Source: Escherichia coli (lineage in GTDB: Bacteria > Pseudomonadota > Gammaproteobacteria > Enterobacterales > Enterobacteriaceae). From it: 64,000 nucleotides of DNA. A program made the position numbers and the translations under genes. Location: NCBI RefSeq assembly GCF_003334405.1, contig NZ_QOWM01000002.1; one strand, written 5' to 3'. This document shows, in pieces, positions 7,980 through 36,596 of this stretch. A model generated the notes under the pieces. It searched no databases. It worked only from the letters and a program-made list of their open reading frames with translations, and was not told the origin of the DNA. Positions within the stretch are counted from its first letter, which is position 1. Each line of letters begins with the position of its first letter.

Positions 7980-8091
7980 CCCCGGCTAGACCGGGGTGCG
8001 CGAATACTGCGCCAACACCAGGGAAATCTTGGCTGCGCCGTAAATTATTATGATGAGTTACAAGGGCACAGCACTGTTTTTCAGGCCGCAC
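7971..8091 (-). ncRNA. arcZ: ArcZ small RNA (RyhA/SraH), antisense overlap with arcB 3' end
   Basis: Reverse complement of 7971..8091 reads GTGCGGCCTGAAAAACAGTGCTGTGCCC...CACCCCGGTCTAGCCGGGGTCATTTTTT, matching ArcZ as I recall it, with terminal hairpin and U-tract. Confidence 0.85.
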
Positions 8092-28110: not shown

Positions 28111-28209
<99 letters not shown>

Positions 28210-28241
28210 TAAACAAAGCGCACTTTGTCAATAATCTGAAG

Positions 28242-28269
28242 CCCCGGCCATGTGCCGGGGTTTCTTTTT
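28242..28269 (+). terminator. intrinsic terminator downstream of obgE
   Basis: CCCCGGC-CATGT-GCCGGGG hairpin followed by TTTCTTTTT. Confidence 0.7.
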
Positions 28270-28271
28270 GA

Positions 28272-29705
28272 CTAATTGTTCTGATAAATATCTTTATACA
28301 AACGGCTTTCAAAACGCACTAACGGAATACGGCGATTACGCTGATCCGCAGGTTCTACTGCATAGCCAGAAAGATATTGCACAAACGCCATTCGTTGCCC
28401 GCTCGCTGTGGTAATGAATCCCGCCAGGTTATATACCCCCTGCAACGAACCGGTTTTCGCTGAGACTTTTCCATCCACGCCCGCCTGATGCAGACCTGCA
28501 CGGTACTGCAAAGAGCCGTCATAGCCCGCCAGCGGCAGCATGGAGATAAAGTTAAGTTCATTGTCGTGTTGGGCAATGTATTGCAGCACCTGCATCATGG
28601 TGGCGGGGGCAATCAGGTTATGCCGCGAAAGCCCTGAACCATCGGCAATAATGGTGTTTCCAATATCGACACCGGCTTGCTGGCGCAGGATCTGACGCAC
28701 GGCGTCCGACCCGGCCCGCCATGTTCCAGGCACATTGAAGCGCGCATGGCCTATCATGCGGAAAACCGTATCGGCGATCATGTTGTCCGACTTTTTCAGC
28801 ATAATCTTAAGCAGATCGTGCAGCGGGGCCGACTGTTTACTGGCAACTACCGTTCCAGGTTCGTTAACCTGAGTCTGGCGCAGCAGTGTTCCGCTCCAGG
28901 TGATACCCGCCTGTTTTAACTCATCTTTCAGAATTGCACCGGCATAGCTGGCTCCATCCTGCACGGCAAAAGCCAACGGGAGCGGCTCAGAACGTTGTGG
29001 CAGGCATCCCGTCAGCGTAAAGCGGTTCAGGTCGCCTGGCACCACATCCAGTTCGCAGTATTGCGCTTCGGCAGAACCACGGGGGAGGGTGCGTACCTGG
29101 CTGAACATCGTAACGGGGTAATAAGATGCCACGCGTATAAAAGCCATATCACCAGGCTTTGGGGCACTGTAGAGCGAGACGGAGAAACAGTTGCGGTCAA
29201 CTATGGCGGCGGCAGGCGGAGCGCTAAAGCATTGTGTCATGTCATTCCATGGCCAGCCGGGGGCTTTATCGTGGCTGGCGAAAATGGAGGTATCTATCAA
29301 CACATTGCCATCGATTTGGTTGACGCCAGATTTTTTCAAAGTCGCGACCATATTGCGAATATCCTGACGTTTTAACGTCGGATCGGCACCAAATCGCGCC
29401 ACTAAGTCACCCTTAAGTACGCCGTTTTCCACATTGCCTTTGGTTTCAAGCGTCGTGGTAAAACGAAAATCGGGGCCGAGTTGAATCAACGCCGCCAGCG
29501 CAGTAATCACTTTCTGGGTACTGGCAGGCAGCGCCATCTGCTGACTGTGGTAATCAATAGCGGGGGCCGACGCGCCGACTTTTTGCACCATCAGGGCAAG
29601 GTTGGCACCAGCGGGGAGTTGAGTAATGTACTCATCAACATTTGCGGCCTGAACACTGAACGCTATACAGCTGGTCAATCCGATGATAAATCTGGAAAAT
29701 CGCAT
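28272..29705 (-). CDS. dacB: D-alanyl-D-alanine carboxypeptidase/endopeptidase PBP4
   Basis: 477 aa ORF with signal peptide and SxxK motif (STQK). Confidence 0.96.
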   Translation of the reverse strand: MRFSRFIIGLTSCIAFSVQAANVDEYITQLPAGANLALMVQKVGASAPAIDYHSQQMALPASTQKVITALAALIQLGPDFRFTTTLETKGNVENGVLKGDLVARFGADPTLKRQDIRNMVATLKKSGVNQIDGNVLIDTSIFASHDKAPGWPWNDMTQCFSAPPAAAIVDRNCFSVSLYSAPKPGDMAFIRVASYYPVTMFSQVRTLPRGSAEAQYCELDVVPGDLNRFTLTGCLPQRSEPLPLAFAVQDGASYAGAILKDELKQAGITWSGTLLRQTQVNEPGTVVASKQSAPLHDLLKIMLKKSDNMIADTVFRMIGHARFNVPGTWRAGSDAVRQILRQQAGVDIGNTIIADGSGLSRHNLIAPATMMQVLQYIAQHDNELNFISMLPLAGYDGSLQYRAGLHQAGVDGKVSAKTGSLQGVYNLAGFITTASGQRMAFVQYLSGYAVEPADQRNRRIPLVRFESRLYKDIYQNN

Positions 29706-29824
29706 AATCTCGCGCTAACAACCTGGAATCGAGCCGTCATACTACGGCGCAACGCCCTATAAAGTAAACGATGACCCTTCGGGAACTTCAGGGTAAAATG
29801 ACTATCAAAATGTGAATTGTAGCT

Positions 29825-29858
29825 GACCTGGGACTTGTACCCGGGTCGGTATTTTTTT
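29825..29858 (+). terminator. greA leader hairpin plus U-tract (attenuator; region of the reported GraL leader RNA)
   Basis: GACCTGGG-ACTTGTA-CCCGGGTC hairpin followed by TTTTTTT about 95 bp upstream of the greA ATG. Confidence 0.5.
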
Positions 29859-29952
29859 GCTTCTGGTCCCGGTAAGGAGTTATGCCGGGCAGGCCGAACA
29901 GCCGGGGTGGGTGAAGACTTGCCCTATCAGGAATATTCAAGAGGTATAACAA

Positions 29953-30429
<477 letters not shown>

Positions 30430-30584
30430 GAATTACCCAATACTCAAGATGTTGATGTATTGTAAAGAAAGGAAAAAGGCCGCTATGCGGCCTTTTATCA
30501 ACGAACAGAGCGTGGCATTTTGCTCTCCTGCCTGCGGAAAACCCCTCGTTTTACACAGCAAATGTGTGTAACTTTAGGATAATC

Positions 30585-30878
30585 TTAGCGTGGCAGCGAG
30601 ATTTTACGTTCTTTAGTTGGGCGATAAAGCACCAGCGTTTTACCGATGACCTGTACATTACAGGCGCCGGTTTCGCGCACGATAGCTTCCACGATCAAGG
30701 TTTTAGTTTCGCGATCTTCGGTGGCGATTTTCACCTTGATGAGTTCATGGTGCTCTAACGCTTGTTCAATCTCGGCCAGCACCCCTTCGGTCAAACCATT
30801 ACTGCCAAGCAGAACAACTGGCTTGAGCGGATGTGCCAGACCTTTCAGGTGCTGTTTTTGTTTAGTACTCAGATTCAT
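30585..30878 (-). CDS. yhbY: ribosome assembly RNA-binding protein YhbY (CRS1/YhbY domain)
   Basis: 97 aa ORF MNLSTKQKQHLKGLAHPLKPVVLLG... Confidence 0.95.
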   Translation of the reverse strand: MNLSTKQKQHLKGLAHPLKPVVLLGSNGLTEGVLAEIEQALEHHELIKVKIATEDRETKTLIVEAIVRETGACNVQVIGKTLVLYRPTKERKISLPR

Positions 30879-31003
30879 CGTATTTTTTGCTTACGTTGGG
30901 ATTGAAAACGGGTCATTCTACCGCCATCTCCCATATATCACCAAATAGGCGCGTAAAAATTTACGCAATTGGTTACGATGAGTTATCCCCATGGGAAAGT
31001 TAA

Positions 31004-31633
31004 ATGACAGGTAAGAAGCGTTCTGCCAGCTCCAGCCGCTGGCTTCAGGAACACTTTAGCGATAAATATGTTCAACAGGCACAGAAAAAGGGGTTACGTT
31101 CCCGTGCCTGGTTTAAACTTGATGAAATACAGCAAAGTGACAAACTCTTTAAACCGGGAATGACGGTTGTCGACCTTGGTGCTGCTCCGGGTGGTTGGTC
31201 ACAATATGTGGTCACCCAAATTGGCGGCAAAGGCCGCATCATCGCTTGCGATCTTTTACCTATGGATCCTATCGTTGGTGTGGACTTTCTTCAGGGCGAT
31301 TTTCGTGATGAACTGGTGATGAAAGCACTGCTGGAGCGCGTTGGCGACAGCAAAGTCCAGGTTGTCATGTCCGATATGGCACCAAACATGAGCGGAACAC
31401 CGGCGGTGGATATCCCCCGTGCCATGTATCTGGTGGAACTGGCGCTAGAAATGTGTCGTGATGTATTAGCGCCAGGTGGCAGTTTTGTAGTGAAGGTGTT
31501 CCAGGGCGAAGGTTTCGATGAGTATCTAAGGGAAATTCGCTCCCTGTTTACGAAGGTCAAAGTTCGTAAGCCGGACTCTTCTCGTGCACGTTCGCGGGAA
31601 GTGTATATTGTAGCGACCGGGCGTAAACCCTAA
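31004..31633 (+). CDS. rlmE: 23S rRNA 2'-O-ribose U2552 methyltransferase RlmE (FtsJ/RrmJ)
   Basis: 209 aa ORF with SAM-binding motif [13 protein letters not shown]. Confidence 0.97.
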
Positions 31634-36509: not shown

Positions 36510-36596
36510 GCCGAGGTGGTGGAATTGGTAGACACGCTACCTTGAGGTGGTAGTGCCCAATAGGGCTTACGGGTTCAAGTCCCGTCCTCGGTACCA
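36510..36596 (+). tRNA. leuU: tRNA-Leu (anticodon GAG)
   Basis: GCCGAGGTGGTGGAATTGGTAGACACGCTACCTTGAGGTGGTAGTGCCC...GGTACCA: long variable arm, GAG anticodon, encoded CCA. Confidence 0.95.

Follow-up and report, generated by a model that had tools for sequence, protein, structure and literature searches.

The closest described system is the greA leader of Escherichia coli K-12. For the MG1655 region, two strong overlapping promoters were reported, i.e., P1 (sigma-70) and P2 (sigma-E) with starts 11 bp apart, together with an intrinsic terminator consisting of an 11 bp stem followed by AU7GCU2 (PMC2836576). The short RNAs released there were named GraL. Those started at P1 measure 49-59 nt and those started at P2 37-47 nt (PMC2836576, PMC6829880), while their 3' ends were located only to +/-2 nt, within UAU7GCU2 (PMC2836576). 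Termination on this sequence reaches about 60% in vitro and 66% in vivo, and northern blots were reported as well. With purified components, a physical release of the short RNAs from polymerase was shown, and they are not chased by Gre factors. Shortening the stem from its top end reduces the termination efficiency, and altering the bottom three stem pairs changes both the efficiency and the spread of the ends (all PMC2836576).

The dependence on GreA was studied in PMC6829880, which numbers all positions from the P1 start (greA AUG at +150, hairpin at +19 to +48, end of the U-rich tail at +59). In a greA deletion strain, a leader-lacZ fusion is derepressed about 3-fold in vivo and GraL is reduced about 4-fold, and GreA supplied from a plasmid restores GraL. 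Repression survives the exchange of the promoter for lacUV5 and requires GreA residue D41, i.e., the D41A mutant is inactive. It is largely lost when +1 to +18 is scrambled or when the stem arms are exchanged, though such templates still terminate in vitro. Not required for GreA autoregulation are the sequence beyond +59, Hfq, Nus factors and sigma-E induction (all PMC6829880). The terminator, its promoters, the termination and its role in greA autoregulation are therefore already known, having been published in 2010 and 2019 for exactly the sequence considered here.

Compared with canonical intrinsic terminators such as lambda tR2, GraL shares the G+C-rich stem directly before a U run and the factor-independent release in vitro. 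It differs from them in its unusually long stem (11 bp, as in 12% of the terminators surveyed; PMC2836576), in the A that interrupts the start of its tail, in a release at about 10 positions compared to 1-3 (PMC2836576), and in its location within a 5' leader with an efficiency of only about 60-66%. The location is shared with attenuators such as the trp leader, T-boxes and SreA, where early termination within the leader determines how strongly the gene behind it is expressed. Like SreA of Listeria, the terminated GraL RNA is also reported to act in trans (PMC6829880). Unlike in these attenuators, neither an alternative structure nor an aptamer or a leader peptide was found in GraL, and GreA increases, directly or indirectly, a termination that occurs by default rather than switching it.

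The DNA analysed here, in the following called the window, is a stretch of 64,000 nucleotides from E. coli. Its positions 28150-31500 are identical to E. coli K-12 MG1655 (a 3351-nt stretch found as exact substring). When a 351-nt intergenic query across the site was searched against complete E. coli genomes, matches annotated dacB/greA were obtained in 5426/5426 genomes, with at least 99% identity in 5177 of them. The hairpin is located between the divergent genes dacB and greA, in the sense orientation of greA and upstream of its AUG. Respective features are listed in Table 1.

Table 1. Features of the dacB-greA region with window positions, strand and the basis of each assignment.
Feature	Position	Strand	Basis or detail
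dacB	28272-29705	-	open reading frame list and MG1655 annotation; start codon at 29705
greA P1, sigma-70-type promoter-like site (ATGACC, 17-nt spacer, TAAAAT)	29771-29799	+	consensus scan, 9/12
greA P2, sigma-E-type promoter (GGAACTT, N16, TCAAA)	29782-29809	+	exact match to the consensus of PMC2836576
GraL 5' unpaired segment, +1 to +18 from P1	29804-29821	+	numbering with greA AUG = +150
Terminator stem I, GCTGACCTGGG	29822-29832	+	sequence, fold, covariation; published +19 onward
Terminator loop, ACTTGTA, 7 nt	29833-29839	+	sequence and fold; length and sequence differ between species
Terminator stem II, CCCGGGTCGGT	29840-29850	+	sequence, fold, covariation
AU7GCU2 tail, GraL release zone	29851-29862	+	A 29851, T7 29852-29858, GC TT 29859-29862
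Remainder of greA 5' leader, only in read-through mRNA	29863-29952	+	sequence and fold
greA coding sequence	29953-30429	+	open reading frame list, 158 aa; WP_001148001.1 in the identical MG1655 record
yhbY	30585-30878	-	open reading frame list and MG1655 annotation; convergent with greA
rlmE	from 31004	+	open reading frame list and MG1655 annotation

Some further elements were observed around these genes. REP-like palindromic repeats are found at 28130-28240, between the obgE stop (28086) and the dacB stop (28272), where Rfam gives sub-threshold matches to naRNA4 (40.5 bits vs. 59.5) and ES036 (31.5 vs. 37.6). Between the convergent genes greA (ending at 30429) and yhbY (30585), a perfect hairpin AAAAGGCCGCATAGCGGCCTTTT at 30474-30496 has A and T runs on its flanks. 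It resembles a bidirectional terminator that greA and yhbY share, and it shows weak, symmetric sub-threshold matches to Rfam STnc540 on both strands. Elsewhere in the window, Rfam matches above threshold are located at 7984-8091, 36510-36593, 40379-40452, 40544-40644, 45343-45413, 46926-47040 and 47270-47441. The respective families are ArcZ (minus strand), two tRNAs, the rimP leader, a naRNA4/REP element, the S15 leader and SraG (minus strand), all of which are expected for this region of the E. coli chromosome.

On the plus strand, positions 29806-29858 read CAAAATGTGAATTGTA GCTGACCTGGG ACTTGTA CCCGGGTCGGT A TTTTTTT. When G-U is allowed, the two stem arms pair perfectly over 11 bp, 7 of which are G-C pairs, and the greA ATG begins 95 nt after the last T of the T7 run. 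Folded as RNA, this segment forms the terminator hairpin as its sole structure with an energy of -19.6 kcal/mol. As a background, 200 dinucleotide shuffles yield -9.5 +/- 2.6 kcal/mol (z = -3.94), with one shuffle as good as the native sequence. The terminator stays intact when the longer segment 29800-29955 is folded. A generic terminator pattern occurs at 8 sites within 3 kb compared to 3.7 +/- 2.0 in shuffles; the site at 29822-29858 is the strongest of them, but such a pattern alone is weak evidence. Beyond it, the hairpin is stable and G+C-rich, U7 begins one nt after the stem and the structure is conserved (see below), as is typical of an intrinsic terminator. Furthermore, a full-length match (model positions 1-124) to the Rfam family RF01769 (Enterobacteria greA leader) spans 29736-29857 with 127.5 bits, compared to a gathering score of 60 (E = 4e-24), and the 3' hairpin of this model is the GraL terminator.

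Next to the fold, the published numbering can be mapped onto the window. With the greA AUG (+150) at 29953 and hence +1 at 29804, position +19 is 29822, i.e., the first base of the stem, +48 is 29851, the A behind the stem, and +59 is 29862, the final T of GCTT. The published dacB AUG (-98) maps one base off, which we take as a counting convention. Given this numbering and the published spacing, the P1 start is the A at 29804 (followed by U in the RNA) and the P2 start the A at 29815 (followed by A). The dinucleotides AT at 29804-29805 and AA at 29815-29816 fit the ApU and ApA primers that were published for P1 and P2 transcription in vitro. The sigma-70-type site sits just upstream of the P1 start so obtained, and the sigma-E consensus GGAACTT-N16-TCNAA has a single match in the whole 64-kb window, compared to 0.02 matches expected by chance. 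At the level of sequence, an overlapping pair of a putative sigma-70 P1 and a putative sigma-E P2 with a start spacing of 11 bp is thus present. Computed from the published chain lengths, the GraL 3' ends fall at about 29852-29862.

Since the published numbering maps without conflict and the anatomy agrees letter for letter, we identify the element with the published GraL terminator. All testable features of PMC2836576 and PMC6829880 agree with it, none differs, and nothing was found against this identity. That is, we read the element as the GraL intrinsic (Rho-independent) terminator in the greA 5' leader of E. coli K-12, acting as a partial, factor-tuned attenuator, with a probability of roughly 0.93.

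An earlier note on this DNA, made from the letters alone, located and interpreted the element correctly. It had described a stable hairpin with a 7-U tract about 95 bp upstream of the greA ATG on the sense strand, which is borne out by the sequence, the fold (z = -3.94) and Rfam. Its statement that greA transcripts would be terminated prematurely agrees with the published termination of about 60-66% in vitro and in vivo on identical sequence. The proposed match to the leader RNA GraL holds, too, given the letter-for-letter 11-bp stem and AU7GCU2 in DNA identical to MG1655. Two details need adjustment. First, the interval 29806-29858 that was assigned to the hairpin does contain it, but covers nearly the whole GraL RNA rather than the hairpin only: it begins 2 nt after the P1 start and stops inside the release zone 29852-29862. 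Second, the note suggested a comparison of an RNA ending near 29858 with the published GraL 3' end. Position 29858 is indeed the middle of the release zone, but the ends are spread over about 10 nt, and thus there is no single 3' end at 29858. Within our literature search, no Term-seq report on GraL was found, and a 2014 RNA-seq operon paper merely cites the GraL paper.

To compare the element beyond E. coli, we searched one genome per species with the promoter motif AAAGTAAACGATGNCC-N4-9-GAACT. This yielded 120 loci, all from Enterobacterales except for one chance match, that span Enterobacteriaceae, Erwiniaceae, Pectobacteriaceae, Yersiniaceae and relatives; since a promoter motif was used to pick them, they sample greA upstream regions with a bias. 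A hairpin of at most -8 kcal/mol with a U-rich tail is present at the homologous position in 111 of the 115 loci with enough sequence. For 104 of these 111 hairpin loci, a greA start follows 81-154 nt (median 102) farther downstream.

An alignment of 110 distinct sequences was used for covariation analysis. The E. coli helix is paired in 91.6% of the alignment cells, compared to 55-56% when the partner is slid by one column. Compensatory double changes are observed for 9/11 stem pairs, and the observed values were reached by 0/500 shuffles for any measure, where the shuffle control ignores phylogeny and the tested structure derives from one of the aligned sequences. This helix is also what RNAalifold predicts unaided from the alignment. 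The GraL terminator is thus conserved with compensatory changes across about 110 Enterobacterales species, compared to the four species considered in PMC2836576. This wider sample is the addition of the present analysis.

The wider sample also shows which features vary. The bottom G-U pair, conserved according to PMC2836576, is G-U in 43/110 sequences, while C-G is found in 28 and U-G in 10. An uninterrupted tail of at least 7 U occurs in 21/115 loci (Escherichia, Citrobacter, Salmonella, Yersinia and few others), and 78 loci carry an interrupted U3-5-N-U3-5 tail, which is mostly TTTTCTTTT; a U4CU4G tail is common in Enterobacter, Klebsiella and Pantoea. Both the bottom G-U pair and the uninterrupted U7 are therefore features of a subset and not of the Enterobacterales as a whole.

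Individual loci deviate more strongly. Three of them (Klebsiella sp. BIGb0407, a Cedecea sp. and an uncultured Enterobacteriaceae) have a wholly different stem in the same position, GGTTTGGGG...CTCCGAACC, followed by TTTTGTT. In these loci the sigma-E -10 element is altered as well (GATAAT for ATCAAA); that is, the structure is kept while the sequence is replaced. Two further loci come from insect-associated species. In Tenebrionibacter intestinalis, the hairpin CTAACCCGG...CCGGGTTAG is kept with no T run after it, and Serratia symbiotica shows a deletion of the GraL 5' part together with a degraded stem. A loss of the attenuator is possible in both.

Combining this anatomy with the published experiments, the following course of events is best supported. 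Transcription would begin at P1 (sigma-70) or P2 (sigma-E), such that the hairpin 29822-29850 is transcribed after 18 nt (P1) or 7 nt (P2) and is followed by the AU7GCU2 tail. About two thirds of the polymerases would release their RNA at any of about 10 adjacent positions, which yields the GraL RNAs of the two length classes given above. The remaining third would read through into the greA mRNA. In vivo, higher GreA levels would result in more GraL and less read-through, an effect that would need the residue D41, which stimulates RNA cleavage, and the native GraL sequence in cis, but not the native promoter. Active GreA would thereby raise, directly or indirectly, the efficiency of a partial terminator, which closes a negative feedback loop on greA.

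Autoregulation of greA by premature termination, which the earlier note had considered consistent with the hairpin, is supported in so far as GreA autorepression needs GraL in cis. It was seen in vivo only, and the mechanism is incomplete. Purified GreA has no effect on the GraL terminator in vitro (PMC2836576, PMC6829880), so either a further partner is required or GreA acts through another gene; our search of the literature from 2020 onward found no paper resolving a GreA accessory factor. In addition, scrambled versions terminate in vitro and yet lose regulation in vivo, which implies that the regulated step involves more than the formation of the hairpin.

Among the other explanations, we weighed first that the main role of the terminator is to form the 3' end of an independent trans-acting sRNA that pairs with other mRNAs, with the control of greA being secondary. 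Overproduction of GraL results in a fitness gain and in expression changes of more than 100 genes, where scrambled GraL gives no fitness gain (PMC2836576). The most likely target is nudE, according to Dylewski et al. 2018 as cited in PMC6829880, and two strong promoters that lead into a terminator look wasteful for greA alone. On the other hand, the 2010 paper found no direct target and a yhbY translational fusion was unaffected (PMC2836576). Moreover, the conserved 5' segment of GraL overlaps elements of the P2 promoter, such that its conservation need not mean a seed sequence. A role in trans is also compatible with the role in cis and does not exclude it. We hence regard the trans function as published but weakly defined, and its being the main role as rather unlikely.

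Alternatively, the hairpin could be a constitutive partial terminator that sets the greA output to about 1/3 of promoter firing, with an indirect effect of GreA and a short RNA that is a functionless by-product. Such a reading would account for a termination efficiency that is apparently constant through growth (PMC2836576) and similar in vitro and in vivo (about 60-66%), for the missing effect of GreA in the purified system, and for the fact that neither an antiterminator nor a leader peptide is detectable. It is at odds with the about 4-fold reduction of GraL in the greA deletion and its restoration by plasmid-borne GreA, with the need for the native GraL sequence in repression while scrambled versions still terminate in vitro, and with a fitness gain that depends on the unscrambled GraL. 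We consider it unlikely and retain the partial terminator whose efficiency is raised by active GreA as the best-supported mechanism.

A classical attenuator or riboswitch would need an upstream antiterminator that competes with the terminator. RF01769 seems to offer candidates, since it draws three extra helices at 29736-29806, and the study that described the enterobacterial greA leader, Naville and Gautheret 2010 (PMC2965389), reports antiterminators for the greA and rnk leaders. In Weinberg et al. 2010, nothing relevant to the origin of RF01769 was found. Since the three helices precede or straddle the P1 start, P1 and P2 transcripts do not contain them; model positions 1-68 fall before 29804 and correspond to promoter DNA rather than GraL RNA. 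Among 109 distinct sequences, every change within these helices is pair-breaking and 0 are compensated, e.g., for 29737/29774 (TA 70, CA 35, AA 4) or 29793/29805 (GT 70, TT 29), where the search pattern fixed part of the helices' 3' sides. The conservation of 29736-29806 can be attributed to the sigma-70 and sigma-E promoter elements that lie there. From such comparison, the 5' two thirds of RF01769 seem to describe promoter DNA rather than RNA structure, and the model as a whole promoter DNA plus the terminator and not a 124-nt RNA.

Within the transcript, only 18 nt precede the hairpin and these are unpaired in the fold. Neither the folds of 29806-29858 and 29800-29955 nor the covariation analysis revealed a mutually exclusive alternative structure or a ligand-binding domain, and regulation is intact when everything beyond +59 is deleted (PMC6829880). 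With no competing helix within GraL, we reject an antiterminator or riboswitch for the P1 and P2 transcripts as very improbable.

Upstream of the greA promoters, conservation is highest in two blocks, ATACTACGG and AAAGTAAAC. Read on the minus strand, they provide TTTACT (29768 to 29763), an 18-nt spacer and TAGTAT (29744 to 29739), i.e., a sigma-70-like arrangement with 8/12 consensus positions that precedes the start codon of the divergent gene dacB (29705) by about 30 nt. This minus-strand site at 29739-29768 could be the dacB promoter and the source of the blocks' conservation.

Even less probable than an antiterminator or riboswitch is an attenuation by ribosomes that translate a short leader peptide from the AUG at 29810. 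This AUG is part of an AUG-UGA start-stop pair at 29810-29815, and about 30 other species have an NTG at this position, from which a frame of 5 codons runs to the TGA of stem I. Yet 18 of about 110 loci lack a start codon there, and the frames range from 1 to 93 codons. The AUG has no Shine-Dalgarno sequence and is preceded by only 6 nt in the P1 RNA, while the P2 RNA (start 29815) lacks it altogether, and termination was reproduced in vitro without ribosomes. As the leader ORF is not conserved among the about 110 loci, this explanation was rejected. The AUG-UGA pair itself recurs only in E. albertii, one divergent E. coli and Intestinirhabdus.

Finally, the hairpin could have arisen by chance or could terminate another gene, for which the abundance of terminator-like patterns (8 in 3 kb vs. 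3.7 expected) might speak. This is hardly conceivable given the fold z of -3.9, the Rfam match and the covariation across families of Enterobacterales. A terminator of another gene or of the minus strand was rejected, since dacB is divergent, such that no gene upstream of the hairpin runs in its direction, and the minus strand lacks a T run behind the stem.

Returning to the partial terminator tuned by GreA, a more specific version can be formulated, namely that the GraL terminator directly senses the occupancy of RNA polymerase by GreA, together with a partner in vivo. In a D41-dependent manner, GreA would cleave and re-set those complexes that pause or backtrack within the U7GCU2 zone. With the partner present in vivo, this would provide repeated chances to terminate, and the spread of the 3' ends would be its visible trace. 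We consider this version doubtful. As the uninterrupted U7 tail is confined to a minority of genera, the imprecise release, and perhaps the sensing of GreA, may be specific to some lineages.
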